A program made the position numbers and the translations under genes. A DNA stretch of 64,000 nucleotides. Source: an uncultured bacterium (GTDB lineage: Bacteria; Vulcanimicrobiota; CADAWZ01). Positions 18,429-57,340 of the stretch are shown in pieces. Below the pieces are notes generated by a model. It had not been told where the DNA came from. It did not search any database and saw only the letters and a list, made by a program, of their open reading frames with translations. The DNA is taken from the NCBI GenBank assembly GCA_949288455.1, contig CASEKF010000042.1:52977-116976 (forward strand), given 5' to 3'. The stretch's first letter is position 1; each line of letters opens with the position of its first letter.

Positions 18429-21400
18429 TTATTTAATTTCAATTTCTGAAGAATTAGTGTTTCCGAATACGTCCGGAGAGTACATCATAGAGGCTTTAGC
18501 CGGGTACATAGTATATTTCCCTTTATATGAGGCTTTTATAAGATACGTAAACAGATGTTCTCCTTTGGTAAGCTTTGAAGCGAACGCTACGGCTCTATCG
18601 GAATAATATTGACGGTGATCAAAAGCGCCGTATCCGCTTTTAAGTTGAGTCATCCGTATTGAATTAAGCATATGTCTATAGAACTCGCTTTCCGTTTCGA
18701 GGGACACGTCTATAATTTCGAATCCTGCGGGAACGCTGTCCGTAAGAACTACGTTGTTTCTGTTATGCATAGCGTTGACAGATATCGTTACTTTATAAAT
18801 TTCTCCTTCTTTAAAACTTTCGCTGAATGTTTTTTGTCGTTTTAACGGCTCTATAGACTTCATGACGGTAAAGCCTCTGTCTAAAGCTTGAATTTCTCCT
18901 TGCCGTTCCCAACTAATCTCTCCGGAATAGTACATTGTCCCTTTATTCTCTTTTTCAAATACTATTTTCGAGGGATTCTCCGTTAATTTAGTCTCGGCAA
19001 AAATGCAATTGTTGTCGTATCCCAGCGGCTGCCAAGCGGCGATAGCTTTACCGTTTAATTTTACCGAGGCTTTGAACGTTTCCGAAGACATTCCCCGGAG
19101 TTCCATAGATTTAGCCGCAGCCGTTAGAGCTAGCGCATTTTCATGCGTGTTTTGCCATCTGTCTTTGTCATTTTTCTGTTCGTTCAGCCAAATAAGTATT
19201 TTGTCTGAATTTGGGAAAAATCCAAAAGTTTCGAGCAATGATATATATATTAGAGAATTTGCGGAGACGTCGGATTGATAAAATTCCGGTATGACGTCGT
19301 CAGCCGCGAACCAGGCCGCTTTGTTTTCTATGACCAGTTTATTGAAAATTTGTCGTTTTAAGTCCTGCTTAATATTTTCGTATTGCGGTTGTTCGCCAAG
19401 CGTTCTCATGAGCAGAGCTTTTCCTTGAATACCCAATTTATCGGAATTTTGTATAAGTTTATTTCTAGCCGAGTCGTTGTTTACTCCTAATAGCCCCAAA
19501 ACATAAATAGCATAGGCTTTTAGGAAGTATTTGCCTTTTTCGTTTTCAACTTCCCATTTTTCGTCTAATTTTCTGCGGACTATAGATTGGAGATAGTATA
19601 TTCCGGCATTTTTCAGTTCGTTTGGCGCCTTATATTTATTTGTGTCTAACTTTCCTATTACATGCATAACGTAGCAAGAAAGGAAGTCAGACGATTTGCC
19701 TTCCGACGGCCACATTCTGAAACCTCCGTCGTAATTTTGTCTGTTGGCCGTTTGATTTAACCATGTATTTATGTTGTCATTGACCCTTTCTTCGCAATTA
19801 AGATATTGAGCTAATTTTGCCGTCATAACATGTGGAACTGCCATTGACGTAATTTGTTCCAGACAATCGTATGGGTAGCCGACGAGATACTCGTAAGATT
19901 TTCTTAGACTTTCATATGCGCAGGAAGACGCATATACTTTAAGTTGCGCGTCTCTTGCTTTAGGTTCGTCTATCGATATTGTTTCTTCCAGGCAAGTTTT
20001 TGACGTCATGCCCGCAAACGCAAGGGTAAAGTAAGCGTTTTGCGCCGGTCTGATTGAAATTTGCGTCTTTAAAATATCCGGTTGAAAGTCCGAATCCATA
20101 TTTTGAGGTTCGGTTTTGAAGATTAAGTCCGCGCTTCCGTTTCGTATTGCTTTTAGGCTGAATAGAGCGACTTCTTCTTTGTTTGGCTTGATATTTAAAA
20201 TTTTACTGTTAGACGAATCTAAAAGTTTCATGTCTTTTTGATCTAAAGTCACTTTTAACGACGCGCTTTTTGCAGTATTGTTGATTAACGTCACTCCGCA
20301 CAGAATTTCGTCTCCTATATGAGCGAAAGAAGGAGCCGCAGCTTTTACGACTATAGGCGAGCTTACCGTCGCTTCCGCTTCGGCTAATTCGGAGAATTTG
20401 TTTTCAGAATAACCTATGGCCATAATGTCGAAGGAGGTTAGACTGTCTGGCATGTTAAACGATACGTCAGCTTTGCCTTCTGAACTTATGGTAACGGCCG
20501 GATTCCAGTAAGCTACGTCGGCGAAGTTGTCCCTTATAAGCTCCGAGTTGTCTCCTCCTCCGCCGTAGTCGCCTTTTTCCTTATACGAAGCCGAAGAAAT
20601 TAGATTTGTTTTTGAACAGAATATATTGGAATTAAGAGATAGGGAACCGTAGAATTTTTTGAAGAGATTCGGAAGTTCGTAGCCCGTAAGAGCAAGAGTT
20701 CCCTTGTCTATTACCGCTATCGAGACTTCTCCTTTGGCGGGATTTCCTTTTTCATCTTTAAGCTCTATTTTTACCGTGGCTTTTTCTCCCGGTTTATACG
20801 TTTGTTTATTCGGAGAGACGGAAATATATAATTTGTTTGAATTTGACGCTACGTTTACTTGCGCGTATCCTACTTTAAACTCGCCGCTGGAGCTTCCGTC
20901 TGTAATGTCAGGAAGTATTAAAGCCGATACGAAGAATCCGGGGATCTCCCGCGGCGTTATCGGGATCTCTATTATCGTAGAGTTTCCTTGTATTTTAACA
21001 AAGTCTTTGTATAATACGGAATCTCCTTCGACAGTTATTATCGCTTTGGCCGATTTATAAGGAGACGGTATAAAAATTTGAGCTTTTTCTCCCGGTTTAT
21101 ATGTTTTTTTCGAGCAGGTTAACTTAATTACCGGAGAATCTTCCTGTTCCCAGCTTGATATCCCGTAGCCGCTCGCATAGAATCCGGCTTCCGAGATCGT
21201 TTCGACTCCTTTTTTATCTTTGCCGGAAACTTTTACTATATAGTATCCCGGCTTTTCCGGAGTAAAATCAAAATTATATTCCGCTTCCGTAGCGTTTAAC
21301 GTTTTTACAACCGTATCTTTCTTTTCGTTAATCCATGAACTTCCGTTTTCTATAACTTCTTTTTTTACGCTTAACCATTCTCTTTTTAATATTTGTATAG

Positions 21401-24053
21401 TAAGAGGAATTTTGGAATATTTATTGCCGTCCGCTTTAAAACAGGCTATTTTTATATTGTGAGGCTTTTTTGTCTCGGCTATGCTTGAATTTGGCCTAAT
21501 TCCTATAAAAGCTTCCGATCTGTGCCATTCCGCAGAAGCTTGGGAAGATCTTTCATATTTTGCCGATTTAGCCGTAGTTTCAAAAGTAATATTTGCGTTT
21601 GGCGGTAGGAGTTTTGCGTCGAAGGGTATATTGAATTCAGCTTTGCCGTCTTTGTCAAAGTTGGATTCTCCTGAAGCCAGAGTAATTAAACCGCCTTCTC
21701 TATGATCTTCGGTTCCAAATATATATTCATTTTGCCCTTTAGGAATAAAATTGTATGGATACGCCGTGAGATTCCAGCTTATTTTGCCGTCTGCAAGCGG
21801 AGAACCGAAGAACCATTTGGCAGAGGCAGATCCAAATATATTAGAGTCGCCGAAATATTCTTTTTTTGAAAGAACCGTTTCCGTGTCCAGTTCTGAAGGC
21901 GCATATTCTTTAATCTTAAAAGTTCCGGCTTCTATAATATGAGATCCTTCGCCTTCGTCAGTAAGCAATAGAACGCTGTAGTCCCCGGTAGGAGCGTTTT
22001 TGTCTATTGCCGCGTTTAAGTTAAAGGCTCCCATTTCCGATAACAGTATTGATTCTTCTTTGATTTTTTCTCCTCTGGAATCGTATATTTGCAATAAAAA
22101 ATTAATTTTTTTTGGATTTTTTTCGCCTCCGGCGACTTTTCGGGGAATTTTTAAGCCGTTAACAGTTTTTTCTCTTACAATACCTTTTATGTTTACCGAG
22201 TTTCCCGGACGATATATATTTTTTTCCGTAAAAATTGACGCTTTATATGGCGAGGCATATTTAAAATCGCTTATTTTATATCCGAGATCCCATAATGGAA
22301 TATTCCAGTCCCAGTTGGCTGCTATGAAGGCGGAATCGTTGTCCTTTGAGGCAAATATGCAGAAATTTTCAATTTTCTTATCTCGCATTGCGTAATATAT
22401 TTCCGTTATGGCGAAACACCCGTTTTTATCCGTAGTTCCTTCCCAGATAAGTTTGTTATTTTTGTCTAATATTCGTATACAAGCTCCTTCTACCGGATTG
22501 TTCGCTTTATCGGTAACGATTATTAAGCCGGAATCGGGAGATAGCTTAGCGTTTATCGTTAAATCAGTTATTTGCGCTAAAGAGTAATCGGTCGTTTCTT
22601 CGGCATTTTTATTTTTTGAACGCGTTTTAACGTATACTAGAGCCGTTCCTTTTCCGTTAGTTAAATATTTGTTTATAGGAATTTTCAACAGTTTTTTCTC
22701 ATTGAGTCTGCATCCCGTATTGATCGTAAAGTAACTCGGATTATGCGATTTAACGTAGGAATCTATATTTTTGTTGTTAAGCGTTATTGAAAGTATGTCT
22801 TCTATAGTCATTTCTTTAACGAAGACATTTAAATACGGAATATTTGTCACGTATATCGGAAGAGAAGCGTCGGACGCCTGGAGAACTACGGCGTTTCCGT
22901 TTTTCATGTAATGAGTCGGAGGATAATCCCCCGTAGTGAAGCGGAATTTTTCATTTTGTCCCAGTTTGATAGGATTTCCGTTGATATCTTTTAAGGCAGG
23001 ATCTAAAATTATAAAATATTCGGAGCGAGGTTTTAAGTTCAATCCGTATATTCGAGGGCTGATGGTGTCGTAGTTTCCTGAAGACATATCTTCCGAGAAG
23101 TTCGTTTCCGGTTCAAATTTTATGTTCTTGACTAAGTCGTTTAATCTTACCGGATTTGAAAATTGTAGTTGAATACTCTCTCCGGGCGGAGGCTCTTTTA
23201 ATAATGTTCCTTGAAATTTAAATTCTTTTTCCGTGCGGAATTTTACGTCAGTCGTATTCTCCATAGACAGCTCTCCTGATTTGAGTCCCGATTCTATGCA
23301 TAGAGAATATGGCGAGTCTAATTCCAGATTTTTTGAAGGATAAAGAAGCAGGCAATGTTCAAAGTTCCAGTCGGAATCTTTGACTAAATCATTTTTGGCG
23401 GCGCGTTTTAAAGTATAGTCTACGGCTTTTTCTCGTTCGCCTTTATCGTTTAACTGATATAAAAAGATATTTTTTTTCGCTTCGTCGATATTTATTTTTT
23501 GATTAAAACATATTTGAAGAGGTTTAGAGGACGATACGAATTGTCCGCCGTTCTTAGGAATTGTTCCTGCTATTGCCGGAGGCAAGGAGTTGAAACTCCA
23601 GGAGTAATCGTTTCCTAAAGTTTCTCCCGATATCGATTTAATATTTTTAGATATCGATACGGCATATTTCGTTCCAGGAGCAAACGGCTTGTTAGGCTTG
23701 AACGCTAAAGACGCTGTGCCAATCCAATAATATTTCCCTTTAACAGGAGGGGAAAACGAAAAATAGCCGGAACCGTCAAATTCAACGGAAGAAGGCGATA
23801 AAGCCGTCATAGGTTTATTAAACGTAACGGAGACTGATTGAAGATCTTCCGAAGATAGGACGTTCCCGTTTGGTATCGCCGCTATAACTTGAAGTTTTTC
23901 ATCTTTTTCGGAAAAAACCGGCGCGACGCTAGAGTAAACTATTTCCGGCTTGCTTTGACTTGTTTTGGACAATCGCTCCGATTTGTTAACGCATGAGTTT
24001 GAAAATAGAGCTAATATACAGATTAAAGCAAAAGTCGTTATATATCTTTGCAT
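18429..24053 (-). CDS. Bacterial alpha-2-macroglobulin family protein (large lipoprotein-like, thioester-containing)
   Basis: 1874 aa. Signal/lipoprotein-like N-terminus, many MG-like beta domains, and the thioester motif ...YPYDCLEQITS... (CLEQ). Confidence 0.8.
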   Translation of the reverse strand: MQRYITTFALICILALFSNSCVNKSERLSKTSQSKPEIVYSSVAPVFSEKDEKLQVIAAIPNGNVLSSEDLQSVSVTFNKPMTALSPSSVEFDGSGYFSFSPPVKGKYYWIGTASLAFKPNKPFAPGTKYAVSISKNIKSISGETLGNDYSWSFNSLPPAIAGTIPKNGGQFVSSSKPLQICFNQKINIDEAKKNIFLYQLNDKGEREKAVDYTLKRAAKNDLVKDSDWNFEHCLLLYPSKNLELDSPYSLCIESGLKSGELSMENTTDVKFRTEKEFKFQGTLLKEPPPGESIQLQFSNPVRLNDLVKNIKFEPETNFSEDMSSGNYDTISPRIYGLNLKPRSEYFIILDPALKDINGNPIKLGQNEKFRFTTGDYPPTHYMKNGNAVVLQASDASLPIYVTNIPYLNVFVKEMTIEDILSITLNNKNIDSYVKSHNPSYFTINTGCRLNEKKLLKIPINKYLTNGKGTALVYVKTRSKNKNAEETTDYSLAQITDLTINAKLSPDSGLIIVTDKANNPVEGACIRILDKNNKLIWEGTTDKNGCFAITEIYYAMRDKKIENFCIFASKDNDSAFIAANWDWNIPLWDLGYKISDFKYASPYKASIFTEKNIYRPGNSVNIKGIVREKTVNGLKIPRKVAGGEKNPKKINFLLQIYDSRGEKIKEESILLSEMGAFNLNAAIDKNAPTGDYSVLLLTDEGEGSHIIEAGTFKIKEYAPSELDTETVLSKKEYFGDSNIFGSASAKWFFGSPLADGKISWNLTAYPYNFIPKGQNEYIFGTEDHREGGLITLASGESNFDKDGKAEFNIPFDAKLLPPNANITFETTAKSAKYERSSQASAEWHRSEAFIGIRPNSSIAETKKPHNIKIACFKADGNKYSKIPLTIQILKREWLSVKKEVIENGSSWINEKKDTVVKTLNATEAEYNFDFTPEKPGYYIVKVSGKDKKGVETISEAGFYASGYGISSWEQEDSPVIKLTCSKKTYKPGEKAQIFIPSPYKSAKAIITVEGDSVLYKDFVKIQGNSTIIEIPITPREIPGFFVSALILPDITDGSSSGEFKVGYAQVNVASNSNKLYISVSPNKQTYKPGEKATVKIELKDEKGNPAKGEVSIAVIDKGTLALTGYELPNLFKKFYGSLSLNSNIFCSKTNLISSASYKEKGDYGGGGDNSELIRDNFADVAYWNPAVTISSEGKADVSFNMPDSLTSFDIMAIGYSENKFSELAEAEATVSSPIVVKAAAPSFAHIGDEILCGVTLINNTAKSASLKVTLDQKDMKLLDSSNSKILNIKPNKEEVALFSLKAIRNGSADLIFKTEPQNMDSDFQPDILKTQISIRPAQNAYFTLAFAGMTSKTCLEETISIDEPKARDAQLKVYASSCAYESLRKSYEYLVGYPYDCLEQITSMAVPHVMTAKLAQYLNCEERVNDNINTWLNQTANRQNYDGGFRMWPSEGKSSDFLSCYVMHVIGKLDTNKYKAPNELKNAGIYYLQSIVRRKLDEKWEVENEKGKYFLKAYAIYVLGLLGVNNDSARNKLIQNSDKLGIQGKALLMRTLGEQPQYENIKQDLKRQIFNKLVIENKAAWFAADDVIPEFYQSDVSANSLIYISLLETFGFFPNSDKILIWLNEQKNDKDRWQNTHENALALTAAAKSMELRGMSSETFKASVKLNGKAIAAWQPLGYDNNCIFAETKLTENPSKIVFEKENKGTMYYSGEISWERQGEIQALDRGFTVMKSIEPLKRQKTFSESFKEGEIYKVTISVNAMHNRNNVVLTDSVPAGFEIIDVSLETESEFYRHMLNSIRMTQLKSGYGAFDHRQYYSDRAVAFASKLTKGEHLFTYLIKASYKGKYTMYPAKASMMYSPDVFGNTNSSEIEIK

Positions 24054-27081: not shown

Positions 27082-27342
27082 GTGGCTATTTATATCGTAG
27101 ATAAAAACGGCTTAGATATCGCGGTTTCTTATGCGGCTATGGATTCGAACGCGAAAGTTTTTCTTATACAAGACGGATTATACGCGCCTAGCGAACTGCT
27201 GAAGGATTTGAAAGTCTTCGTTTTTTCCGAAGAGGTCGAAGAAAGAGGTCTTGGCGACGTTCTTCCCGCTTCTTTCGAAAGAATCGGGTATGACGAAGGC
27301 ATAGATATAATGGTTGACGAACGGATCGTGTCGTTTTGCTGA
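27082..27342 (+). CDS. DsrH/TusB-like protein
   Basis: 86 aa. ..KVFLIQDGLYAP.. resembles the DsrH/TusB signature (LLQDGVYA). Confidence 0.5.
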   Translation: MAIYIVDKNGLDIAVSYAAMDSNAKVFLIQDGLYAPSELLKDLKVFVFSEEVEERGLGDVLPASFERIGYDEGIDIMVDERIVSFC

Positions 27343-28307
27343 TTTTTAATATTACTGCCGACGCTTTATTGTTTTCGTCGGATTGGTCGGCGGAGATTAA
27401 GACCGTACATCGTAAGGCGGTTAATCTTATTGACAATTCCGGCAGCTTGATCACGCTTTGCGACAGATCTGTTATGCCCGGTTTCGGTCGTATAACTCTT
27501 CCGCATTCCGATTTGTTCGATATTTTTTCAGAAGGTTCTTCGGTCTATTTTTCCAGACGTTCAAATAAGTTGACATATGCCGAATTTAATCTTGATAAAT
27601 CCTGTTTCCGCTTGTGGAAACAGGATTTGTTTTCTGATTTAAAGACTATATCTATCGATTCTTTAATCTCTAACTCTGTACTGTTTGCGGAAAAATTTAT
27701 GCGTTTTTGCCGTCCCAGGGAAAAAATATTGTTTTCTTCTTTAATAAATTTTGCGTTAAACTCTGACGGAAAGGTTATCGAGAAAAATTGCGAAGGAATT
27801 CAAGATTCAGTTTATGCCAGGTTGTCGGATATATGGAGAGATTTTTTCTATTGTTCGTTTATGAAGGTTGAATATGATGTTTTGAAGAATTTCATATATG
27901 CGAGCATAGGTTTAGGATATGGATTTACGCCTTCGGGAGACGATTTGCTATCCGGTTTTTTATGCGCGCTTCACGTCTTGAAAAAACAATCTCCGGAACT
28001 TTATCCGGACTGTATTCCGAATAATTTTTTTAATCTTATTGAACTAGGAGCCGGAAACGCTCCTTTAATTAGCTCGAAGTTGCTTTTAAGAGCGGCTGCG
28101 GGAGAATATCCTTCGGAAATTTCAGAATTATTCCGCTTGTTGGTCGGCGAAGCGTTCTCTTCAGGACTTAGTCCTTACGTTTTGACTGAGGATGAAATTA
28201 TAACTTATTTTCTAAATCATGGTTATTCTTCCGGTAGGGAAATTGTTATGGGTTTTACGGCCGGTATTCTGTTCGGCTGTTCTTATTATAAAAAAATCAC
28301 ACGTTAA
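27336..28307 (+). CDS. DUF2877 (YlbF-like) protein
   Basis: 323 aa. GYGFTPSGDDLLSGFLCAL and HGYSSGRE motifs. Overlaps the DsrH-like stop. Directly precedes fdrA. Confidence 0.55.
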   Translation: MLIFNITADALLFSSDWSAEIKTVHRKAVNLIDNSGSLITLCDRSVMPGFGRITLPHSDLFDIFSEGSSVYFSRRSNKLTYAEFNLDKSCFRLWKQDLFSDLKTISIDSLISNSVLFAEKFMRFCRPREKILFSSLINFALNSDGKVIEKNCEGIQDSVYARLSDIWRDFFYCSFMKVEYDVLKNFIYASIGLGYGFTPSGDDLLSGFLCALHVLKKQSPELYPDCIPNNFFNLIELGAGNAPLISSKLLLRAAAGEYPSEISELFRLLVGEAFSSGLSPYVLTEDEIITYFLNHGYSSGREIVMGFTAGILFGCSYYKKITR

Positions 28308-28312
28308 GAGGT

Positions 28313-29887
28313 TTGTATATGCTTGTCAATTATATTATTAAAAATCGATTTTATGATTCGGTTCTTTTAATGCAGATTGCCAACGACATAAAATCAAAGT
28401 TCGGCTTTGAAAAAGTATCCGTTATGATGGGTACTCTTCCCAATAAAGATTTGATGAGGGAAACCTGCGTTTTAGCCGACGAGGGCGAAGCGGCCGGAGC
28501 GAACGACGTTATAGTGGCGTTTGGCACAGATAAAGAAGAAGATTTTAAAAAGGCTTTCGAATATTTGAACGATTTGCTTGAGAAGAAAAAAGTGAAATTG
28601 GATGCCGGAGGCGTTAACGTTTCGTATTCCACTATCGAATCGGCTTTTCAAAATCATGACGACGCAAATACCGTATTTATATCGCTTCCGGGTCCTTTTG
28701 TGCGATATGAGGCTCAAAAAGCCGTAAATCTTGGAATGAACGTAATGATTTTTAGCGATAACGTGTCTTTGGAAGATGAGATCGCATTAAAGAAGGCGGC
28801 GGAGAAAAAAGGCGTTATAGTAATGGGGCCAGATTGCGGAACCGCTATTATAAAAGGTTCCGCTTTGGGGTTTGCCAACGTTATACCTCAAGGACCCGTA
28901 GGTATAGCAGGAGCTTCCGGAACCGGAATTCAAGAATTAACGGTTCTTCTCGCCGATAGAGGCATTGGAGTTTCGCACGCTTTAGGCACAGGAGGCAGAG
29001 ACGTTTCCGAGGCCGTTGGCGGAATCGCTTTGCTGCAAGCGTTGAGAGCGTTGGGAGAAGACGAATCGACAAAAATTATAGCCGTTATTTCAAAGCCTCC
29101 ATGCGATAAAGTCGTTAATAAAATGCTTAAGGAGCTTGAAAGGATATCTAAACCCGCAGTAGTCTGTTTTATGAAAGACGGAGAACTCATGAAAGATTAC
29201 GCTAACATTCGTTTCGCCGCGACTATTGAAGACGAAGTTGGCATTTTAGAAGAACTTATATATGGCGCGCCGTATAAAAAATCGCTCTTCTCTTACGATA
29301 AAGAGGTAATAGACGAGCTTGTATGCCGTTCCGTCGCCGCGCTTAACGAAGAGCAGAAATATATAAGAGGTCTTTATTCAGGAGGAACGCTCTGCGACGA
29401 GGCTTTGATGATTTTGAATCGGGCTTTTGGGAACGTGTGGTCTAACGCTTCTCTTTATCCCGATAGAAAACTTAAAGACGCTAAAGAGTCTAAAGAACAT
29501 TCGCTTGTAGATATGGGAGACGATGAATTTACCAGAGGAATGCCTCATCCTATGATCGATTTTACCTTAAGAAAGGAGAGGCTGATTAAGGAAGTTCGTC
29601 AAAAAGACGTGGCCGTAATATTGTTAGACGTCGTTTTGGGATACGGTTCTCATATGAATCCCGCCGGCGAATTGGCGGAAGTTATTAGATCGGAAAGAGC
29701 TTTAGCTTTAAAGGAAGGGCGCGATTTTGTCGTTTGCGCTTATGTGTGCGGAAGCGAAGGAGATCCTCAAAAGCTGGCTGAGCAGAAGAAAATTTTGGAA
29801 GACGCTGGCGTAATTCTTATGCCTAGCAACGCTCAAGCGGCTCGCTTCTGCGTCTTAGTAGCCGGAAGAGGCAAAATAACTTTATAA
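28313..29887 (+). CDS. fdrA: FdrA-family acyl-CoA-synthetase-like protein
   Basis: 524 aa. The N-terminus (MxxNxIIKNRFYDSVLLMQI..KVSVMMGT..NK) closely resembles the E. coli FdrA N-terminus. CoA-ligase/succinyl-CoA-synthetase-like domains. Confidence 0.8.
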   Translation: MYMLVNYIIKNRFYDSVLLMQIANDIKSKFGFEKVSVMMGTLPNKDLMRETCVLADEGEAAGANDVIVAFGTDKEEDFKKAFEYLNDLLEKKKVKLDAGGVNVSYSTIESAFQNHDDANTVFISLPGPFVRYEAQKAVNLGMNVMIFSDNVSLEDEIALKKAAEKKGVIVMGPDCGTAIIKGSALGFANVIPQGPVGIAGASGTGIQELTVLLADRGIGVSHALGTGGRDVSEAVGGIALLQALRALGEDESTKIIAVISKPPCDKVVNKMLKELERISKPAVVCFMKDGELMKDYANIRFAATIEDEVGILEELIYGAPYKKSLFSYDKEVIDELVCRSVAALNEEQKYIRGLYSGGTLCDEALMILNRAFGNVWSNASLYPDRKLKDAKESKEHSLVDMGDDEFTRGMPHPMIDFTLRKERLIKEVRQKDVAVILLDVVLGYGSHMNPAGELAEVIRSERALALKEGRDFVVCAYVCGSEGDPQKLAEQKKILEDAGVILMPSNAQAARFCVLVAGRGKITL

Positions 29888-29918
29888 ACTGGAAAATTTT
29901 TGAAAGGATATATATTGC

Positions 29919-31325
29919 ATGTCAGTTCATATAAATAATCTGCTTAAAAACGGTCCGAGCGTTATTTCAATGGGTTTGCCTTTATTCGGCGAAGCTCTTA
30001 AAGAACAAGGCGTAAAAACTGATCATATAGATTGGAAACCTCCTTGCGAAGGAGATCCGGAACTTATATCGATTTTATCGTCTCTTCAGTCGGAAGAAGT
30101 AGAGAAAGCTAACTCGTTAGCTCTCGACAGACTTATAAATTCCACGCCCGTATTGGTCGATCTTGCTCCCGCCGCGGAAGTCCTGCCGGATATGGATAAA
30201 CATACTATATTACATGCAGGACCTCCTATTTCTTGGGAAAGAATGTGCGGTCCTATGAAAGGCGCCGTTTTGGGTGCCGTAGTATACGAAGGTCTTGCAG
30301 ATAACTTAAATGAAGCGGAAAAATTGGTCGAGTCAGGAAAAATACGTCTTGATTCTTGCCATCATCATAACGCGGTCGGACCTATGGCCGGAGTTACTTC
30401 GGCCTCTATGTATATGTTTGTCGTAGAAAACGTCTCATTTAATAATAGAGGATTTTGTAATTTAAACGAGGGGCTAGGCAAAGTTTTGAGGTTTGGAGCC
30501 AACGACGCCGAAGTTTTAAAAAGGTTAAAGTGGATGGAGTCGACGCTTGGCCCGGCTTTGAAAAAAGCCGTAAAATTGTCGGGAGGAATCGATATAAAGA
30601 ACATTACTTCCCAGGCTCTGTTAATGGGAGACGAGTGCCATAATAGAAATGTAGGAGGCACTTTACAGTTTTTAAAAGTTATAACTCCTTATCTTTTAAA
30701 AACTGATACTCCTTATTCCGATATAAGAGATATTTTTGATTTTATCGCCGGCAACGCGCATTTTTATTTGAATTTGTCGATGGCCTCTTGTAAAGCTACC
30801 GCAGATTCGATAAAAGGCATTGAAAAATCTACTATTTTGTACTGTATGGCCCGTAATGGAGTAGAAATCGGAATTAGAGTCGCCGGTTTAGGAGACGAAT
30901 GGTTCACGGCTCCTTCAGGTATGCCTGACGGCCTTTATTTTTCCGGTTTTTCAAAAGCAGATTCTAATCCTGACTTAGGAGATAGCACTATTTCCGAAGT
31001 TGCCGGCATAGGTGCGGTCGCTATGGCCGCGGCTCCCGCGATAGTAAAGTTTGTAGGGGGAAGCGCGTCTATGGCTTTAGAATCTACTATGAAAATGTAT
31101 CAAATTACATATGGAAGCCATAGAGATTTTACTATTCCTTCTTTAGACTTTATGGGAACGCCTCTTGGCTTTGATTTAAGAAAGATTATGGAAACCGGAA
31201 TCACTCCTATTATCAATACCGGCATAGCGCATAAAAAAGCCGGCATAGGTCAGATTGGAGCGGGTATTTTAGATGCCCCTAAAGGCGGATTTAAAAAGGC
31301 TTTATTGGCTTTTGGCAGAAAATAA
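29919..31325 (+). CDS. DUF1116 (YlbE-like) protein
   Basis: 468 aa. The position after fdrA matches the conserved E. coli fdrA-ylbE arrangement. Confidence 0.65.
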   Translation: MSVHINNLLKNGPSVISMGLPLFGEALKEQGVKTDHIDWKPPCEGDPELISILSSLQSEEVEKANSLALDRLINSTPVLVDLAPAAEVLPDMDKHTILHAGPPISWERMCGPMKGAVLGAVVYEGLADNLNEAEKLVESGKIRLDSCHHHNAVGPMAGVTSASMYMFVVENVSFNNRGFCNLNEGLGKVLRFGANDAEVLKRLKWMESTLGPALKKAVKLSGGIDIKNITSQALLMGDECHNRNVGGTLQFLKVITPYLLKTDTPYSDIRDIFDFIAGNAHFYLNLSMASCKATADSIKGIEKSTILYCMARNGVEIGIRVAGLGDEWFTAPSGMPDGLYFSGFSKADSNPDLGDSTISEVAGIGAVAMAAAPAIVKFVGGSASMALESTMKMYQITYGSHRDFTIPSLDFMGTPLGFDLRKIMETGITPIINTGIAHKKAGIGQIGAGILDAPKGGFKKALLAFGRK

Positions 31326-34812: not shown

Positions 34813-35544
34813 TTATTCTTTAGAAAATTTACCGTAATTAGTATATGCGCAGTCGTCGCAGTTTTTGCAAATACTTTCGGGATCTTTGACGCATGAAAAA
34901 ATGTCTGACGCCGCTCCCGGACTGCCCGGAATAAGCTGCAGAAACGTCACGAAACTTGCCACTAGGTCATGATTCCATACCAAAACGTTTCTAGGATGCG
35001 ATATATTAACGGGAGCGAAATTCCAAACGGCCTCGATCCCGTATGAGAAAAGTTTATTCGCTACGTTTTGCGCCGCTTTTGCCGGAACTGTAAGTATTAC
35101 TATTTTTATATCGTTATCCTTAATATAAGATTCCAATTCGTCCATTGATAAAATATCTTTGCCTGCGATATGAGCTCCGACCATATTAGGATTTACGTCG
35201 AACAACGCTTTAATTTTCATGCCCTGATTGGCAAAGCCTTCGTATTTGGCAAGCGCGATGCCTAAGTTGCCTGCCCCGACGATTATAATATTGCGTTGTT
35301 TATCAAATCCTAAAAACGTTCTTAGATATTCGGCGAGTTCCTTTGTATTGAATCCTATTTTTGGCTTTCCTCCGTATCCTATGGCGGCTATATCTTTACG
35401 AACTTGCGTCGGATCTATATTAAGGACGTCGGCTATATTGGAGCTTGATATATATTGTTCGCCCATATCTACGGCATGCCGAACAATGTTGTAATATAGA
35501 GGAAGTCTTCTTAAAGTTGGTATTGACAGACGTTTTTTTGCCAT
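34813..35544 (-). CDS. rex: Redox-sensing transcriptional repressor Rex with a C-terminal Cys-rich extension
   Basis: The Rex N-terminus (IPTLRRLPLYY..) and Rossmann motif (IIIVGAGNLG) are present. 243 aa, about 30 aa longer than typical Rex. The tail is ...CVKDPESICKNCDDCAYTNYG. Confidence 0.8.
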   Translation of the reverse strand: MAKKRLSIPTLRRLPLYYNIVRHAVDMGEQYISSSNIADVLNIDPTQVRKDIAAIGYGGKPKIGFNTKELAEYLRTFLGFDKQRNIIIVGAGNLGIALAKYEGFANQGMKIKALFDVNPNMVGAHIAGKDILSMDELESYIKDNDIKIVILTVPAKAAQNVANKLFSYGIEAVWNFAPVNISHPRNVLVWNHDLVASFVTFLQLIPGSPGAASDIFSCVKDPESICKNCDDCAYTNYGKFSKE

Positions 35545-35626
35545 TTTTCAGACGGTATTCCTTTATTGAAAATATCAGGCTGCCGCAACGTATAAAATAT
35601 AACTAGCGGCAGCCTTTGTAAGTATT

Positions 35627-37378
35627 TTATTTGAGATTTTTATAACAATTTTCGAATCTGTCGATATATACGGTATGCAGAAGTTTATGAGCTTTTTCGC
35701 TTCCCGGCTTTTCCAGCCACTCTTTATATATAGCTTTTATTTCCGGATTTTCGTGCGATTTTCGTATTGGTAGCGACGAGTCTTCGTCGTAAAGTCCTTT
35801 GGCTCGTTTCTCGACTTTTCCGGGTTCGTTGCAGCTTATAGGCTGTCCGCCGCCGCTTATGCATCCTCCCGGACAGGCCATTACTTCCAGAATTTGGAAG
35901 TCGGCCGTTTTATCGATAACTTTACGAAGCATTTTTTCAGCTTCTTTGAGAGTGTTGACTACGACTACTTTAACTTTTGTCCCGTTTAGATCTACCGTCA
36001 GTTCTTTTGACGTACTTAATCCCCTGGTTTCTTTGATATCAACGTTTTCAAGCGTTTTTCCCGTCGTAAATTCATAAACGGTTCTTAACGCCGCTTCGGC
36101 TACTCCTCCTGAAGCTCCGAATATAGTTCCTGCGCCGCTGTACGATCCGAAAGGCAGATCCGGAGTTTCCGGCTCAAGATCTTTTAAGTTAATGCCGGAG
36201 CCTTTTAACATTTTGATAAGTTCTTGAGTAGTAAGAACGACGTCCACGTCTCTTTCTCCGTCTACGGAAAATTCTTCGCGCTGACATTCCGCTTTTTTTG
36301 CTGTGCATGGCATGAAAGATATTATTTTGAAGTTTTCTCGTTTTATTCCGTCTCTATTTACGGCTATGTCTTTTACAAGAGATCCGAACATAGCTTGTGG
36401 CGACCTTGCGGTAGAAAGATGCTCTATCAATTCTGGATGTTGAGTTTCCACATATTTTACCCAGGCAGGACAGCAGCTTGTGAAAAGCGGAAGACGTTCG
36501 TTCTTTTCAAGTCTCCTTATTATTTCCGTTCCTTCTTCCATAATAGTCAAATCCGCGGAAAAATTAGTGTCGTAGACTTTGTCGAATCCCATTATTCTCA
36601 GAGCGGCGACAAGTTTTCCTATGACGTTTTCTCCCGGAGCCAGACCGAATTCTTCGCCTGCGGCGACTCTTACTGCGGGAGCTATCTGACATACTACCGT
36701 TTTTGTCTTGTCGTTGAGAAGCGCGCGAGCCTTCTCTATATCAGACTTGATAGTAAGAGCTCCTACGGGGCATACCGCGACGCATTGACCGCAGTTTACG
36801 CAGTCTACTTCAGCCAGATGCTTTTTAAGAGCCGGGGTAACTATAGTTTTAGAGCCTCTGCCGGCGAAGGAAAGTATGCTCAGCCCTTGACGTTCCGCGC
36901 AGGCTCTTACGCATGCTCCGCAAAGTATGCATTTGTTGGGATCCCTAACAATAGAAGGATTAGTGTCGTCGAGCTCTTCAAGACGTTTTTTGCCCGGGAA
37001 TCTTATTTCGTTTACTTCATATAAATTCGCAAGCTTTTGGAGTTCGCAATTGTGCGAACGAGAACAGGTAGAGCATTCTCTATTGTGGTTAGCCAATAAA
37101 AGCTCTAGAACCATTTTCCTTATTCTTCTGACGGTATCCGTGTTGATCCGAATTTTAAGCCCCGGTTCAGGAGGCATAGTGCAGCTTGATTGTATCCCTC
37201 TGCCTTCGATTTCGACGATACACATGCGGCAAGCTCCGAAAGATGTTAAGTCTGGTCTGTAACATAACGTCGGAACTTGAAATCCGGCTTTGCGTATAAC
37301 TTCAAGAAGGTTTTTTTCGTCGGTAAATTCTACTTCTTTTCCTTCTACGAATAACGTTTTTTTATTATTGTCGCTCAT
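35627..37378 (-). CDS. hydA: [FeFe]-hydrogenase catalytic subunit (HydA/HndD-like) with N-terminal 2Fe-2S and Fe-S cluster domains
   Basis: 583 aa. H-cluster motifs TSCCPAWVKY, MPCTAKK and MACPGGCISGGGQP, two CxxCxxCxxxCP motifs and an N-terminal plant-type ferredoxin domain. Confidence 0.9.
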   Translation of the reverse strand: MSDNNKKTLFVEGKEVEFTDEKNLLEVIRKAGFQVPTLCYRPDLTSFGACRMCIVEIEGRGIQSSCTMPPEPGLKIRINTDTVRRIRKMVLELLLANHNRECSTCSRSHNCELQKLANLYEVNEIRFPGKKRLEELDDTNPSIVRDPNKCILCGACVRACAERQGLSILSFAGRGSKTIVTPALKKHLAEVDCVNCGQCVAVCPVGALTIKSDIEKARALLNDKTKTVVCQIAPAVRVAAGEEFGLAPGENVIGKLVAALRIMGFDKVYDTNFSADLTIMEEGTEIIRRLEKNERLPLFTSCCPAWVKYVETQHPELIEHLSTARSPQAMFGSLVKDIAVNRDGIKRENFKIISFMPCTAKKAECQREEFSVDGERDVDVVLTTQELIKMLKGSGINLKDLEPETPDLPFGSYSGAGTIFGASGGVAEAALRTVYEFTTGKTLENVDIKETRGLSTSKELTVDLNGTKVKVVVVNTLKEAEKMLRKVIDKTADFQILEVMACPGGCISGGGQPISCNEPGKVEKRAKGLYDEDSSLPIRKSHENPEIKAIYKEWLEKPGSEKAHKLLHTVYIDRFENCYKNLK

Positions 37379-37382
37379 TAGA

Positions 37383-39233
37383 TTAAACCTCCTTTATTGC
37401 TTTAAAAGGACAGGATTTCAGGCAGGCTCCGCATTTTATACATTTTGACTGATCTATTTCATGCGGTTTTTTTACTTCTCCTGAAATAGCTCCGGCAGGA
37501 CAGTTTCTGGAACACTTCGTACAGCCTCTGCACAGTTCTTTGTCTATTACTATGGTTCTTAAAGCTGAACATACGCCCGCGGGACATTTTTTGTCTTTTA
37601 TATGCGCCACATATTCGTCATAGAAATATTTAAGAGTAGAGAGAACAGGATTTGGAGCTGTTTTTCCCAAACCGCACAAGGATCCGGCTTTTACGTCGGC
37701 GGCAAGTTCCTGAAGAAGATCAAGATCCTTCATCGTCGCCTTGCCTCTAGTGATATCGTTGAGAATTTTCAACATGTTTTTAGTGCCTTCTCTGCATGGA
37801 ACGCATTTTCCGCAGCTTTCGCTTTGCGTAAAATTCATAAAAAATTTGGCGACGTCGACTATACAAGTATCTTCGTTCATGACTACAAGACCTCCTGAAC
37901 CTATCATGGCTCCGGCTTGTATAAGCGAATCGTAGTCTAGAGGCAGATCCAGATGTTTTTCTGTGAGGCATCCTCCGGAAGGGCCTCCTATTTGGGCCGC
38001 CTTAAATTTTTTGCCGTTTCTTATGCCTCCGCCTATATCGAAAATTACTTCTCTCAACGTCGTTCCCATAGGAACCTCTATGAGGCCTGTATTGTTCACT
38101 TCTCCCGTTAGAGCGAATGTTTTAGTTCCCTTAGATGTTTTAGTTCCCATAGAGCTAAACCATTCGGCTCCGTTAAGAATAATCAGAGGGACGTTTGCGA
38201 GAGTTTCTACGTTATTTATAAGGGTCGGTTTCCCGAATAAACCCTTATTTGCGGGGAACGGCGGCTTTGGCCTTGGCATTCCGCGTTCTCCTTCTATCGA
38301 CGCTATAAGGGCCGTTTCCTCGCCGCATACGAACGCGCCGGCTCCTTCTTTTATATGAACTGTGAAACTGAAGTTCGTTCCCAGTATATTTTTGCCTAAA
38401 AGATTATGTTCTTCGGCTTGTTTTATCGCTATTCTAAGTCTTTTAATAGCTAAGGGATACTCTGCTCTTACGTATATATACGCTTCGTCCGCTCCTATGG
38501 CGTATCCGGCTATAGCCATTCCTTCCAGAAGCCTGTGGGGATCGCCTTCCATAACACTCCTATCCATGAACGCTCCGGGATCTCCTTCGTCACCGTTGCA
38601 TACTACATATTTTTTGTCTGATTGAGCTGTTTGGGTGAACATCCATTTGCGGCCCGTTGGGAATCCTCCCCCTCCTCTGCCTCTTAAGCCGGAATCAGTA
38701 ATGATTTTTACCGTTTCTTCCGGCGTTTTATTTTTAACGACGTCTTCCAGAGCTTCGTATCCTCTTAGCGCTATAGCGTCCGTTATATCTTCCGGGTTAA
38801 TATGTCCGCAGTTTGAGAGTGACGTTCTGTGCTGTTTAGCGTAAAAATGTATGTCGTCGCTTCTTTTTATTTTTTCATGCGTCTCCGGATCCGTGTAAAG
38901 AAGTCTTTCTACCGGAACGCCGGATCGTATGCTTTCTATAATTTCGTCTACGTCGCTTGTCTTGACTTTAACGTAAGTTATATGCAAGTCGGGTATAATC
39001 ATCAAAGCTCCCTGCTCGCAGAAGCCATGGCAACCCGTAGGAACGACCGTAGTTTTCCGGGATTGAATTGAAGACGCTTCGATCCCCGCTTCTCTGAGTT
39101 TTTTTATTATTTCGAGAGAGCCGTTGGCGACGCAACCTGTTCCGGCGCATACGAAGACTCTTAACCCCTGAGCGGCTATTTTTTGTTTCGCCTCATCTTG
39201 CATTTTTTTTATTTTCAATTCGTTTGATTGCAT
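37383..39233 (-). CDS. hydB: NADH-binding flavoprotein subunit of bifurcating hydrogenase (NuoF/HndC-like)
   Basis: 616 aa. N-terminal thioredoxin-like 2Fe-2S domain, GRGGGGFPTGRKW FMN/NADH motif, SCGKCVPCREG, and two C-terminal 4Fe-4S motifs. Confidence 0.9.
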   Translation of the reverse strand: MQSNELKIKKMQDEAKQKIAAQGLRVFVCAGTGCVANGSLEIIKKLREAGIEASSIQSRKTTVVPTGCHGFCEQGALMIIPDLHITYVKVKTSDVDEIIESIRSGVPVERLLYTDPETHEKIKRSDDIHFYAKQHRTSLSNCGHINPEDITDAIALRGYEALEDVVKNKTPEETVKIITDSGLRGRGGGGFPTGRKWMFTQTAQSDKKYVVCNGDEGDPGAFMDRSVMEGDPHRLLEGMAIAGYAIGADEAYIYVRAEYPLAIKRLRIAIKQAEEHNLLGKNILGTNFSFTVHIKEGAGAFVCGEETALIASIEGERGMPRPKPPFPANKGLFGKPTLINNVETLANVPLIILNGAEWFSSMGTKTSKGTKTFALTGEVNNTGLIEVPMGTTLREVIFDIGGGIRNGKKFKAAQIGGPSGGCLTEKHLDLPLDYDSLIQAGAMIGSGGLVVMNEDTCIVDVAKFFMNFTQSESCGKCVPCREGTKNMLKILNDITRGKATMKDLDLLQELAADVKAGSLCGLGKTAPNPVLSTLKYFYDEYVAHIKDKKCPAGVCSALRTIVIDKELCRGCTKCSRNCPAGAISGEVKKPHEIDQSKCIKCGACLKSCPFKAIKEV

Positions 39234-39237
39234 TATT

Positions 39238-39726
39238 TTACTCTCCTCTATCTTCTTTTATAAGAGTATCTATGATAATTTTAACAGCCTCCGGAGTTAT
39301 TTTCGGATAAACCTTATCGTTGATTACGATTACCGGAGCAAGTCCGCAAGCGCCAAGGCAACTGACGGTTTCTACGGAGAATAGTCCGTCTTCAGTCGTG
39401 AATTTCCCGTCTTTGAGTTCCAGTTTGGCTTTCAGAGCGTTCAGCGTTGGCATTGAACCGCGAACATGACAAGCGGTTCCGTCGCAACATTTTATTTGAT
39501 ATTTTCCTTTAGGATCAAGGCTGAACTGACTATAAAACGTAGCGACGCCGTAAACGGTTGCCGGAGATATTCCCATCTTTACTCCTATCCGTATGATCGC
39601 GTCTTCCGGAAGGTAGTTATATTCCGCTTGAATATGCTGAAGGATTGCAATCAGATTAGACTGAGCGTTTCCAACGCTGTCTACAATAGCGTCGACTTTC
39701 TCAAGAAAAATCGTTTTTGAACTCAT
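39238..39726 (-). CDS. hydC: NuoE-like 2Fe-2S subunit of bifurcating hydrogenase
   Basis: 162 aa. CxxxxC...CLGACGLAPV pattern of the NuoE/HndA family. Confidence 0.85.
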   Translation of the reverse strand: MSSKTIFLEKVDAIVDSVGNAQSNLIAILQHIQAEYNYLPEDAIIRIGVKMGISPATVYGVATFYSQFSLDPKGKYQIKCCDGTACHVRGSMPTLNALKAKLELKDGKFTTEDGLFSVETVSCLGACGLAPVIVINDKVYPKITPEAVKIIIDTLIKEDRGE

Positions 39727-55138: not shown

Positions 55139-55723
55139 TTAGATCATTCCTATAGCTAATTTTCTTGTTTTACCGCATATCAAACATTTAAATTCGGCTA
55201 CGGCCCATCTGGATACTTTTTCAGTTTCTTGCTGAGGGAGCGGAGCGTAAGCATGTTTATGATCCGAGTCTCCTTCTTTTATATAAATTACTTTCTGTCC
55301 TTTCGTTCTGAAAACGATTATGCTTTCCATATCGAGCATTTTAGAGTATTCTATGCTCATGGAATACGATTTGCCGTCCGGAAGGGGAGTAAACTTACAT
55401 TGGCTTCTTATTTCCGATATGGGCATTATTCTGCCGTCTACGGGTTTGCCGTCCGCGCTCATTTCTACAATACAAAGATGTGACGAAGAAGCCAGGCTTT
55501 TCTCGGTAAGAGTGAATCTTACCGTTTTAGAAGTTTTTCTCTCTCTTGGGAACGCTGAGCAGACTCTTATTTTATATCCTTCGGGAGTCTCAAGATTGTA
55601 GCCGGTTTCTTGTCCGACCTTTACGCACCCTGAACCAAAAAGGGACATTACATAATCTACCGCAATTTTATTGCGGCTGAAAGATTGCTGTGAGGATGGC
55701 ATTTTCGTTAATCCTGTTCTCAA
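55139..55723 (-). CDS. Hypothetical protein (194 aa)
   Basis: ORF with an RBS. No recognised domain. Confidence 0.4.
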   Translation of the reverse strand: MRTGLTKMPSSQQSFSRNKIAVDYVMSLFGSGCVKVGQETGYNLETPEGYKIRVCSAFPRERKTSKTVRFTLTEKSLASSSHLCIVEMSADGKPVDGRIMPISEIRSQCKFTPLPDGKSYSMSIEYSKMLDMESIIVFRTKGQKVIYIKEGDSDHKHAYAPLPQQETEKVSRWAVAEFKCLICGKTRKLAIGMI

Positions 55724-55775
55724 ATATGAAAATTTTCATAGGGAATTCTATACGGCGAAGGTTTTTCCCTTTTTT

Positions 55776-55818
55776 AAAAAAAGATACCGTTTTAAGCTTT
55801 CTCAAAACGGTATCTTTT
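55776..55818 (-). terminator. Rho-independent terminator after the 435-aa Gly-zipper gene
   Basis: AAAGATACCGTTTT-aagctttctc-AAAACGGTATCTTT with flanking A/T runs. Confidence 0.55.
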
Positions 55819-55851: not shown

Positions 55852-57159
55852 TTAAACCAGCCCTTCCATTAATTTACCTCCCAATTCGGCTCCTTTATCT
55901 CCGCATAATATTGAGCCCGCTATACTTCCTATAAATCCTCCTATTACCGTTCCTATTCCGGGACATATTGCCGTTCCTATCGCCGCTCCTACTGCCGTGC
56001 CGGCCATGTCTCCTACTTTATCTCCGATTATTCCGCCTACTGCTCCGCCTAATCCTACTAATATTTTTTCTCCGGTACTTAGTTCTTTGCCGTTTTCTTC
56101 AGCGTTTTGAATGGCGTCATGAGCTCCCGAGATTCCGCTGACGGCTATGTCAAGTCCCGGAATCGCCTTCCCAATAGTTGTTAATACTTTCTCTCCCGTT
56201 TCCGAGCCTACTTTTGAGCCCACTTTAGCGGTTAAGTCGGCAGCCGCTTTCCCCAAGTCGTCAGCTTTAGTTATGTTTATTGCCCCGGCTAAGTCGGTAA
56301 CTTTTTTGCCTATGTCGCTCGGATTAGCGTTTTTCAGCGTTTCTCCCGCGCCTTGGGTTATTTCTAAAATATCCTTTGTGACGGAGAGGCCGTCGGTAGC
56401 TGCGCTTTGAACGTCTCCCTCTTTTATGGAATTTACCAAGCTGGCTCCGTCGGCCGCTAATCCAAGTCCGGAGCTAATTTTATCAAAAGCTTTGGAATCG
56501 CTCTTTATATCGGGAAGAATTTCGGATATTGCGGCCTTGGTTTGCGGATCTACGTCAGGAAGCATGTCCGAGATTCCGTTTGAGAGTTTGTCTGTTATTT
56601 CGTCTTTTTTCGTTTGCATATTTTGCGGCAGAAGGCTTGTTATTTTGTCTCCTATACCGGGGCCTTTATCTGGAAACTTTTTATCGTTTTCTAAAAATTC
56701 CAGACCTTTGACGGTTCCTTCTAAATATTTTGAATGTTCGTCAGCTATATCCGCGGCGTATCCTAACGGATCGCCCGAGGCCGCATCTTCGGATTCTTCC
56801 GAATTTTCGGTAGAAGTTGAAGGTTGAGCGGTTTTATTCTCGGTATTCGTCTTAGCTTCGCTGTTTGTCGGCCGGCTTTGAGACTTGTTTCCGGATATCT
56901 CGGCATTTTCCTCTTGCGATTCGTCCGTAAAATTTTTGAGGAGCGGACTCACGTCGTTATCGTCGTCTTCTTCAGGTTCGGATATAGATACGTTATCTTG
57001 AGTCGGTTCGGTTTTTGAGGCCGCTTTAGTTTCCGAGGTCTTGGAAGTCGCTTTAGTTTCCGTAGTCTTGGAAGTCGATTCGGTTTTAGACACGCTTTGA
57101 GATTTAGCTGTAGTAGAGCTTTTATTTACGCCGGAAATAGGTTCGATAGGATCTGACAT
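55852..57159 (-). CDS. Glycine-zipper protein with S/T/K/E-rich N-terminal half (function unknown)
   Basis: 435 aa. The C-terminus GGAVGGIIGDKVGDMAGTAVGAAIGTAICPGIGTVIGGFIGSIAGSILCG is a classic GxxxG zipper. The N-terminus is low-complexity. No signal peptide. Confidence 0.55.
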   Translation of the reverse strand: MSDPIEPISGVNKSSTTAKSQSVSKTESTSKTTETKATSKTSETKAASKTEPTQDNVSISEPEEDDDNDVSPLLKNFTDESQEENAEISGNKSQSRPTNSEAKTNTENKTAQPSTSTENSEESEDAASGDPLGYAADIADEHSKYLEGTVKGLEFLENDKKFPDKGPGIGDKITSLLPQNMQTKKDEITDKLSNGISDMLPDVDPQTKAAISEILPDIKSDSKAFDKISSGLGLAADGASLVNSIKEGDVQSAATDGLSVTKDILEITQGAGETLKNANPSDIGKKVTDLAGAINITKADDLGKAAADLTAKVGSKVGSETGEKVLTTIGKAIPGLDIAVSGISGAHDAIQNAEENGKELSTGEKILVGLGGAVGGIIGDKVGDMAGTAVGAAIGTAICPGIGTVIGGFIGSIAGSILCGDKGAELGGKLMEGLV

Positions 57160-57340
57160 CGTTAGAGTCTCCTTTTTTGTAAAGTAAAAATTAAAAAATA
57201 TTTATATTTCCTCTAACTTTATTATAAAGACTGATATGTAGTTAATTATAGAGCTATTTTGTAAACTTTATTGCCAAAATGTTACTTTTATTAAACAAAA
57301 ATAGTTTATTATCGTTTCTTTTGTAGATATAACGCTAACG

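Follow-up and report, generated by a model that had tools for sequence, protein, structure and literature searches.

What does a protein do whose only hydrophobic element is a glycine zipper close to its C-terminus, and to what is that zipper related? The question is raised by the gene at 55852..57159 (minus strand) of the window, as the whole 64-kb stretch of contig CASEKF010000042.1 analysed here is called. Its open reading frame (ORF) starts with ATG, encodes 435 amino acids (aa) and has a C-terminus identical to the sequence quoted in an earlier, sequence-only reading, which suggested that, with two glycine-rich proteins encoded at 10.9-14 kb, it makes up a small family of three. The chief outcome for this stretch is a correction of that view: judged by sequence comparison, there is no three-member family in the window. 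The conserved, functional part of this lineage-restricted protein is, according to alignments, its C-terminal glycine-zipper module of ~110 residues. It is homologous to the module that ends polymorphic toxins of type VII secretion systems (T7SS; WXG100/LXG), of the type VI secretion system (T6SS; PAAR-like DUF4280) and of the Rhs type, and that recurs in phage tape-measure proteins. The protein represents a new architectural arrangement of a known type of membrane-active module, from a phylum about which little is known.

A small orphan family with a widespread module

An exhaustive phmmer search with aa 120-435 against 1.84 billion cluster representatives, at a cut-off of E<=1e-3, yielded 140 proteins. 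Only three of them, apart from the protein itself, reach E ~1e-10 or better (P0041, 365 aa; P0042, 449 aa; P0043, 540 aa). These three match its three-part architecture, with a disordered N-terminus of biased composition, a helical middle containing the motif S-I-x-E-G-D and a C-terminal zipper. Family-level similarity spans aa 228-435 and is confined to these three non-phage proteins; with just three relatives of full architecture, the family is thus a very small orphan family. The surroundings of P0043 (locus L048, 1350-3910) include a DUF6883 gene and a Peptidase_M91 (NleD-like) protein that has HemolysinCabind repeats, an effector-like neighbourhood in contrast to the one in the window. 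All remaining matches are limited to the last 60-110 residues. The core G-A-A-I-G-T-A-I-[CLF]-P-G-x-G-T is found in about 120 of the 140 matches and, in about half of the 140, lies 40-50 aa from the C-terminus, the same position as in the 435-aa protein. Judged by these 140 matches and by the core that about 120 of them share, the zipper exceeds a chance effect of composition. Comparison with five module members gave shuffle z values of 12-18.

Other searches returned little. No relative was found in GTDB species-representative genomes, and word-indexed homology searches recovered the protein itself, P0042 and zipper-only matches. Nothing in Pfam, NCBIfam or PADLOC exceeded threshold, with low-complexity noise alone at E<=1 in the first two; PDB sequence searches with the protein and with the family profile gave no match, and a literature search for the core motif string found no paper. 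As far as profile comparisons tell, the C-terminal module is widespread, is not named by any curated family and is part of the Pfam Gly-zipper clan. The 435-aa protein scores below the gathering thresholds of PF05433 (16.5 bits, threshold 24.2) and PF13488 (10.6 bits, threshold 25), and PF13488 is matched at E<0.001 by 22 of 122 module relatives. A two-helix GxxxG hairpin is common to the protein and to the Pfam glycine-zipper families (PF13488, Gly-zipper_Omp; PF05433, Rick_17kDa_Anti/'Glycine zipper 2TM'; PF13441, YMGG), whose classical members, small lipoproteins of the outer membrane, have signal peptides, whereas the protein in question has none.

Anatomy of the zipper hairpin

The module covers aa 326-435 (55855..56184, minus strand), as delimited with a 40-sequence alignment (A6), phmmer, PHROG, PDB and AlphaFold2 (AF2). 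It opens with a lead helix, which is followed by an acidic loop (NAEENGKELSTGEK) and a glycine-zipper helix; then come the hairpin and a short amphipathic tail. A6 shows that the lead helix and the acidic loop also belong to the module. The hairpin, MAGTAVGAAIGTAIC-PG-IGTVIGGFIGSIAGSILCG (aa 385-420; 55900..56007, minus strand), is an uncharged helical stretch of 36 aa that coincides with the hydropathy maximum and with a turn in the AF2 model. It is the sole charge-free hydrophobic stretch of the protein, flanked by D/K at both ends, and is predicted to be the membrane-inserting element. C399-P400-G401 forms its centre. Zipper glycines stand in i/i+4 register on both arms (G371-G395 and G403-G415), and Tandem Repeats Finder (TRF) detects a 12-nt periodicity at 55939-55998. 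The tandem GxxxG zipper with two Cys residues, noted in the sequence-only reading, is confirmed by this register and by Cys at 399 and 419.

The core motif, GAAIGTAICPGIGT (aa 391-404), follows the pattern G-x-x-h-G-[TS]-x-h-x-P-G-x-G-T, and with the in-register glycines on both arms and the lead helix and acidic loop ahead it completes the set of features by which the module is recognized. In A6, G391, G395, P400, G401, G403, T404 and G407 (full-length numbering) are invariant. The two Cys residues are not juxtaposed in the hairpin, and the first is often L, F, M or A in homologs, which makes a structural disulfide unlikely. AF2 modelling of the full-length protein from a single sequence reached a predicted local distance difference test score (pLDDT) of 39 and is usable for secondary structure alone. 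The model of aa 326-435 built with A6 reached 57.6 and has helices at 334-355, 362-376, 380-398, 402-419 and 423-434, with a turn of the chain at C399-P400-G401 (low confidence). The C-terminal hairpin, for which structure prediction had been suggested, was thus obtained as a helix-turn-helix, but with low confidence (pLDDT 58) and with no significant match of the module model in a Foldseek search of the PDB (best E = 3.3).

Toxin and phage contexts of the module

A Pfam scan of the matches revealed toxin-type contexts, with three WXG100, one LXG, one PPE and two DUF4280/PAAR-like proteins, and a further module protein (P0006) is labelled RHS repeat-associated protein by its source. The module terminates WXG100, LXG, PPE, DUF4280 and Rhs-associated proteins alike, as expected of a C-terminal module shared among polymorphic toxins. 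P0003, a combination of DUF4280 and the module, is encoded in a textbook T6SS polymorphic-toxin locus (L049, 1492-8762), with the gene order VgrG, a 287-aa gene (adaptor), P0003, two PoNi genes, a 38-aa orphan module fragment and a second toxin of DUF4280-PT-HINT type. PoNi proteins provide immunity to PoNe DNases, and given this role it is odd to find their genes behind that of a zipper toxin. The module is also carried by dynamin-like GTPases and LysM proteins, and it is therefore not exclusive to toxins.

The long module matches are tape-measure or minor-tail proteins with PhageMin_Tail, TMP_3, SLT or M15 domains. Segment 281-427 of the 435-aa protein matches PHROG 3405 (E = 1.8e-9), the tape-measure PHROG 794 matches the protein at E = 3.5e-5, and PHROG 10093 also matches its C-terminal 150 aa. 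In the PDB, the module profile matches only one protein, the tape-measure protein of phage Mu (9ki1_g, aa 587-639, E = 9e-6; PMC11915804), and viral contigs match the 435-aa protein at the zipper level only, inside ORFs of 1575-1785 aa. With Mu gp42 (PDB 9ki1 chain g) and PHROG 794 the 435-aa protein has in common the zipper segment and a preceding Gly/Ala/Lys-rich helical region. These matches would suit descent from a phage tail tape-measure, ejection-type protein, of which a fragment had been domesticated or had decayed. Tape-measure proteins, however, are 700-1800 aa long, have PhageMin_Tail/TMP domains and often several mid-protein zippers, and are encoded in tail gene modules. None of this is true of the protein examined here, which has 435 aa (<600), no PhageMin_Tail/TMP domain and no phage genes around it in the window. 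Its gene is intact, with its own ribosome-binding site and terminator, and the family-level relatives noted above are all non-phage proteins. Descent from a phage fragment is very unlikely.

The same distribution over toxins and tape-measure proteins has been reported for the glycine zipper of Tde1, which is homologous to the zippers of tape-measure proteins and permeabilizes membranes (PMC10240207). C-terminal glycine-zipper modules are emerging as a common membrane-depolarizing weapon among T6SS, T7SS and Rhs toxins and, in phage tape-measure proteins, as the part that penetrates the membrane. In T7SS, C-terminal glycine zippers are the toxic, membrane-depolarizing element of TelE, LXG-T2 and EsxX (PMC10434224, PMC12955049, PMC12258717), and those of TelE and EsxX are neutralized in the producer cytoplasm by soluble DUF5085 proteins (TipE, ExiAB) that bind them (PMC12258717). 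Like the 435-aa protein, the T7SS LXG toxins TelE of Streptococcus gallolyticus, EsxX of Staphylococcus aureus and LXG-T2 of Streptococcus suis are all-helical, with an extended GxxxG zipper ~40-50 aa from the C-terminus, and uncharacterized WXG100/LXG proteins have the very same AIGTAICPGxGT module. The likeness to TelE and EsxX, as these toxins are described in PMC10434224 and PMC12258717, is one of the type of motif and of where it lies. Unlike these toxins, the protein lacks an LXG/WXG100 domain, Lap/Esx partners and T7SS genes in its vicinity; its lineage is probably not Bacillota, and its neighbour protein is not DUF5085.

Among T6SS/Rhs effectors (Tse4, Tse5-CT, the Tde1 N-terminus and PAAR-like-CT), the terminal module is shared by P0003, P0050 and P0169 (DUF4280) and by P0006 (Rhs-associated). 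The 435-aa protein differs in that PAAR, VgrG or a Rhs cage is lacking, the window contains no T6SS genes, and there are neither a downstream immunity cassette nor orphan C-terminal fragments. A further parallel is offered by the bacteriocins CdzC/CdzD of Caulobacter, exported by the type I secretion system (T1SS), which, as cited in PMC12955049 and PMC10434224, are glycine-zipper proteins that kill on contact with no enzymatic toxin domain. They are small, and are accompanied by an adjacent dedicated T1SS and a membrane immunity protein; no such genes occur at the locus, and the parallel is drawn by description only.

No shared family with the glycine-rich pair

The two genes at 10960-12699 and 12713-14044 (both plus strand) encode tandem paralogs with 43% identity (E = 6e-62). 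The real start of the first is probably the ATG at 10960, which follows an AAGAGGT site, and not the TTG at 10930. In both products the ends are hydrophilic, a Gly/Ala-rich core of ~300 aa lies in mid-protein, and a signal peptide is lacking. They match no family in Pfam, PHROG or PADLOC, a pattern scan of JGI metagenomes found no relatives, and they are orphans themselves. Like the 435-aa protein, they are Gly-rich, show GxxxG periodicity and have no signal peptide, so a genome-specific family of three, or at least one functional set recognized via a shared N-terminal signal, might be envisaged. Comparison with the pair gives a different picture. BLASTP matches the 435-aa protein to the two pair members with E = 0.45 and 0.009, over Gly-rich stretches alone; the profile-profile comparison by hhalign yields a probability of 11.8%; and composition-preserving shuffles give z values of 1.8-3.2, versus 12-18 for genuine module relatives. 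The CPG core is absent from the pair, which matches none of the module relatives (set P0002-P0180), of which the 435-aa protein matches 91. As a statement of homology, the family of three is refuted by BLASTP, hhalign, the shuffles and the cross-BLAST, the protein being related to the pair in composition only, which is the outcome that the sequence-only reading had itself named as decisive against its claim. Nor does the architecture, supposedly common to all three, agree: a 125-aa disordered region, a helical middle and one 36-aa C-terminal hairpin on one side; a mid-protein core and a hydrophilic C-terminus on the other.

One likeness is left over. Of the proteins encoded by the 41 genes of the window, the three Gly-rich ones and no others have an [IV]SG tripeptide among their first 20 aa (at 57130-57138 in the 435-aa protein, and at 10987-10995 and 12728-12736 in the pair), against a background of 0.028 per protein. 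P0041 begins with MAEVSGISS, and P0005 also begins with M-x-x-V-S-G. The motif was chosen after the data had been seen and is not conserved in P0042 or P0043; on these grounds it is recorded as unexplained, and it may reflect either a common recognition signal or mere chance. With homology refuted, the modules and architectures unlike and the tripeptide picked post hoc, a common family or functional set is very unlikely.

Effector or anchor?

The favoured reading, held tentatively and at somewhat less than even odds, is that the protein is a membrane-permeabilizing effector aimed at other cells, antibacterial or otherwise exported. Its hydrophilic, acidic N-terminal two-thirds would remain in the aqueous phase, while the uncharged 36-residue helix-CPG-helix hairpin, its two ends remaining on one side, would insert post-translationally into a cytoplasmic membrane. 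Homo-oligomerization through the GxxxG faces would then give rise to an ion-conducting, depolarizing channel, a behaviour that experiments have demonstrated for TelE, EsxX, Tse4 and the N-terminus of Tde1. Insertion of the hairpin and formation of a channel are extrapolated from work on TelE, EsxX, LXG-T2, Tse4 and Tde1 (PMC10434224, PMC12258717, PMC12955049, PMC10240207). Export would take a non-classical route, because the protein has no signal peptide and no known trafficking domain. In the producer, the zipper may be shielded by the soluble 187-aa protein encoded next to it, by analogy with the DUF5085 proteins TipE and ExiAB. In favour of an effector are the 140 module matches, the conserved 14-residue core, the toxin and phage contexts and the anatomy of the hairpin, together with the presence of the 187-aa gene next to the zipper gene in two genomes with otherwise rearranged flanks.

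Several observations weigh on the other side. Neither a trafficking or secretion domain (LXG, WXG100, PAAR/DUF4280, Rhs, CdiA) nor a signal peptide was found in the protein by Pfam, NCBIfam and hydropathy; there is no membrane-type immunity gene near it, and no gene for a secretion apparatus in the 64 kb of the window. The comparison with bacteriocin-like and contact-dependent toxins proposed in the sequence-only reading hence succeeded for the C-terminal module, which is homologous to that of WXG100/LXG, DUF4280 and Rhs proteins, but not for a trafficking domain or secretion genes. The 187-aa neighbour belongs to no family, is separated from the zipper gene by a terminator and lies on its other side at the P0041 locus (L045), and no homolog of it is seen in the visible flanks of P0042 or P0043. 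Conservation is the reverse of that in polymorphic toxins, the C-terminus being conserved and the N-terminus variable. Moreover, the module is also found in non-toxin contexts (dynamin-like GTPases, LysM and tape-measure proteins), the structure models are of low confidence (pLDDT 39 and 58), and the resemblance to TelE, EsxX, Tse4, Tse5 and CdzC, taken from descriptions, concerns the type and position of the motif.

The main rival, which fits several of these facts better than an effector does, would place the protein in the cytoplasmic membrane of the producing cell itself, anchored by the hairpin in a tail-anchored-like manner, with the zipper simply tethering the long acidic, disordered/helical cytoplasmic domain. 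It would then serve as a membrane organizer, a scaffold or a factor associated with stress or with ribosomes, and would have no part in antagonism; ElaB/YqjD, which are C-tail-anchored proteins, may serve for comparison. An anchor accords with the lack of a signal peptide and with a sole hydrophobic element that lies <50 aa from the C-terminus and has charges on both sides. It also agrees with a monocistronic gene in a stable housekeeping neighbourhood, nearly invariant on 13 contigs, with the lack of a trafficking domain and of nearby immunity or secretion genes, with a conserved C-terminus and a variable N-terminus, opposite to polymorphic toxins, and with the occurrence of the module in dynamin-like and other non-toxin proteins. 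The hairpin arms, however, have only ~15-19 residues and are glycine-rich, a property typical of oligomerizing or pore-forming zippers and not of inert anchors. Further, the closest module relatives with a recognizable context are secreted toxins and phage membrane-penetrating proteins, and Pfam and NCBIfam give no match to DUF883/ElaB or any anchor family. A role as an anchor in the producer's own membrane is held to be somewhat less likely than an effector.

It is tempting to go beyond a single effector and to see in the family, and possibly in the glycine-rich pair too, a class of leaderless glycine-zipper effectors of the Eremiobacterota/Xenobia lineage, with a short N-terminal export signal and a 187-aa partner, but this is improbable. 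Such effectors would be devoid of all known trafficking domains. The signal would run from M-x(3-9)-[IV]-S-G through a disordered, Ser/Thr-rich stretch to a D-x-V-x-I-acidic motif, and the 187-aa protein would be a soluble zipper-binding partner that keeps the effectors inactive. If true, this would amount to a previously unrecognized delivery route for membrane-depolarizing toxins. What gives the protein its interest is that a very strongly conserved AIGTAICPGxGT core here belongs to a stand-alone protein devoid of any known delivery domain, and that hardly any members of the phylum have been cultured. As an effector it would point to an unrecognized export route and a new soluble zipper-binding partner; as a mere anchor it would be a warning that not all C-terminal glycine zippers should be called toxins. 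For the module, a proper family model could start from alignment A6.

The 187-aa neighbour

The candidate partner, a role proposed by analogy, is a soluble 187-aa protein encoded at 55139..55702 (minus strand), downstream of the terminator of the zipper gene and transcribed separately from it. It has no Pfam, PADLOC, PHROG or PDB match, and a pattern scan of JGI metagenomes found nothing. A C-x-x-C at its end and a DHKH stretch may bind metal. A homolog with 63% identity is encoded directly upstream of P0041 (L045, 9289-9852). The flanks in L045 differ on both sides; the far one is occupied by an FHA gene, the homolog of which is found at 32.2 kb in the window. The comparison with L045 therefore indicates, for two genomes, that the zipper gene and the 187-aa gene stay adjacent through rearrangement, although their order has changed.

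Expression signals and conservation of the zipper gene

The zipper gene is monocistronic. A ribosome-binding site, AAGGAG, is read from the sequence at 57169..57174 (minus strand), 9 nt 5' of the ATG, and is preceded by ~170 nt of AT-rich intergenic DNA, in which a scan with the sigma-70 consensus found no promoter. RNA folding locates an intrinsic terminator at 55772..55818 (minus strand), with an 18-bp stem, a 4-nt loop and U7, beginning 34 nt past the stop codon (dG -24 kcal/mol, z -4.95); none of 200 shuffles folds as well. The strong terminator ascribed to the gene on first reading therefore exists. A simple terminator scan did not pick it up, perhaps because of its AT-rich stem. With its own ribosome-binding site and its own terminator, the gene is a separate transcription unit. 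On 13 metagenome contigs, which stem from several sequencing runs and share the gene neighbourhood, the protein is identical or differs by 2 aa. The alleles differ by two nonsynonymous and zero to two synonymous changes, too few for dN/dS.

N-terminal and middle regions

The low-complexity region of aa 1-125 (56785..57159, minus strand) is probably disordered, as indicated by composition, hydropathy, charge and AF2. It is rich in Ser, Thr, Glu and Lys (S24/T19/E18/K12), its second part (aa 59-125) is strongly acidic with a net charge of -14, and in the single-sequence AF2 model (low confidence) secondary structure is absent before aa 131, helices following thereafter. TRF finds a 27-nt tandem repeat at 57022..57086 (minus strand), encoding SKT[TS]ETKA[TA], with 2.1-2.2 copies and 84-93% match. 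The hydropathy profile shows no hydrophobic segment at the N-terminus, and a classical signal peptide is therefore lacking. Both the T/S/K/E-rich low-complexity N-terminus and the missing signal peptide had been correctly noted before. A double-glycine bacteriocin leader or a prepilin leader was considered and rejected: the putative leader would have just 8-12 aa, a GG/GA/GS cleavage context with the usual LSxxELxxI is missing, and the G is not followed by a hydrophobic segment. Across the family the N-terminal region is unalignable except for D-x-V-[SA]-[IL]-x-x-acidic...L-x-x-N-[FYI]. This motif, common to P0041 and P0042, occupies aa 55-77 (56929-56997).

The middle region (aa 126-325; 56185..56784, minus strand) is hydrophilic, acidic and predicted to be all-helical, according to AF2 (low confidence) and the family alignment. 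It contains three I-[ST]-x-h-L-P-[QD] repeats (aa 174-222; 56494-56640) and, as seen in the family alignment, the conserved S-I-x-E-G-D motif, and has no Pfam, NCBIfam or PDB sequence match.

Lineage and other genes of the window

The window is ordinary chromosome, with kdpABC/kdpD, lepA, alpha-2-macroglobulin, miaA, rodA, allFGH-like, rex-hydABC, Ser/Thr kinase, pepA, penicillin amidase and selA genes; no phage genes are present in it, and Rfam detects no RNA families. The immediate neighbours of the zipper gene encode nitroreductase, glutamate-synthase-like and NUDIX proteins. The glutamate-synthase-like gene has at most 65% identity (<=65%) in GTDB representatives, and neither a taxonomic anchor nor a syntenic ortholog resulted from it. 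LepA (16494-18302, minus strand) has its closest named relatives, at 75-77% identity, in metagenome-assembled genomes of Eremiobacterota, Vulcanimicrobiota and Candidatus Xenobia. From these identities, and from the lack of close GTDB-representative relatives of the zipper protein and of the glutamate-synthase-like gene, it follows that the window comes from a poorly sampled lineage. The bacterium is uncultured and Eremiobacterota/Xenobia-like.

Three other loci deserve mention. At 18429-24053 (minus strand) lies a gene for a bacterial alpha-2-macroglobulin of 1874 aa, with Big_5, MG2, a bait region, a thioester-type domain and MG10, and an N-terminus that resembles a lipoprotein signal (…LALFSNSC). 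The genes at 27336-31325 (plus strand) encode an AllH, CoA-ligase-like (AllF-type) and AllG set, followed by a PNP/UDP phosphorylase; the AllF/G/H set corresponds to the oxamate carbamoyltransferase of anaerobic purine/allantoin degradation. Finally, at 34813-39726 (minus strand), a Rex-like regulator is followed by a trimeric [FeFe] hydrogenase of the electron-bifurcating type, made up of HydA, a HydB/Nuo51-like subunit and HydC, which is 2Fe-2S thioredoxin-like.

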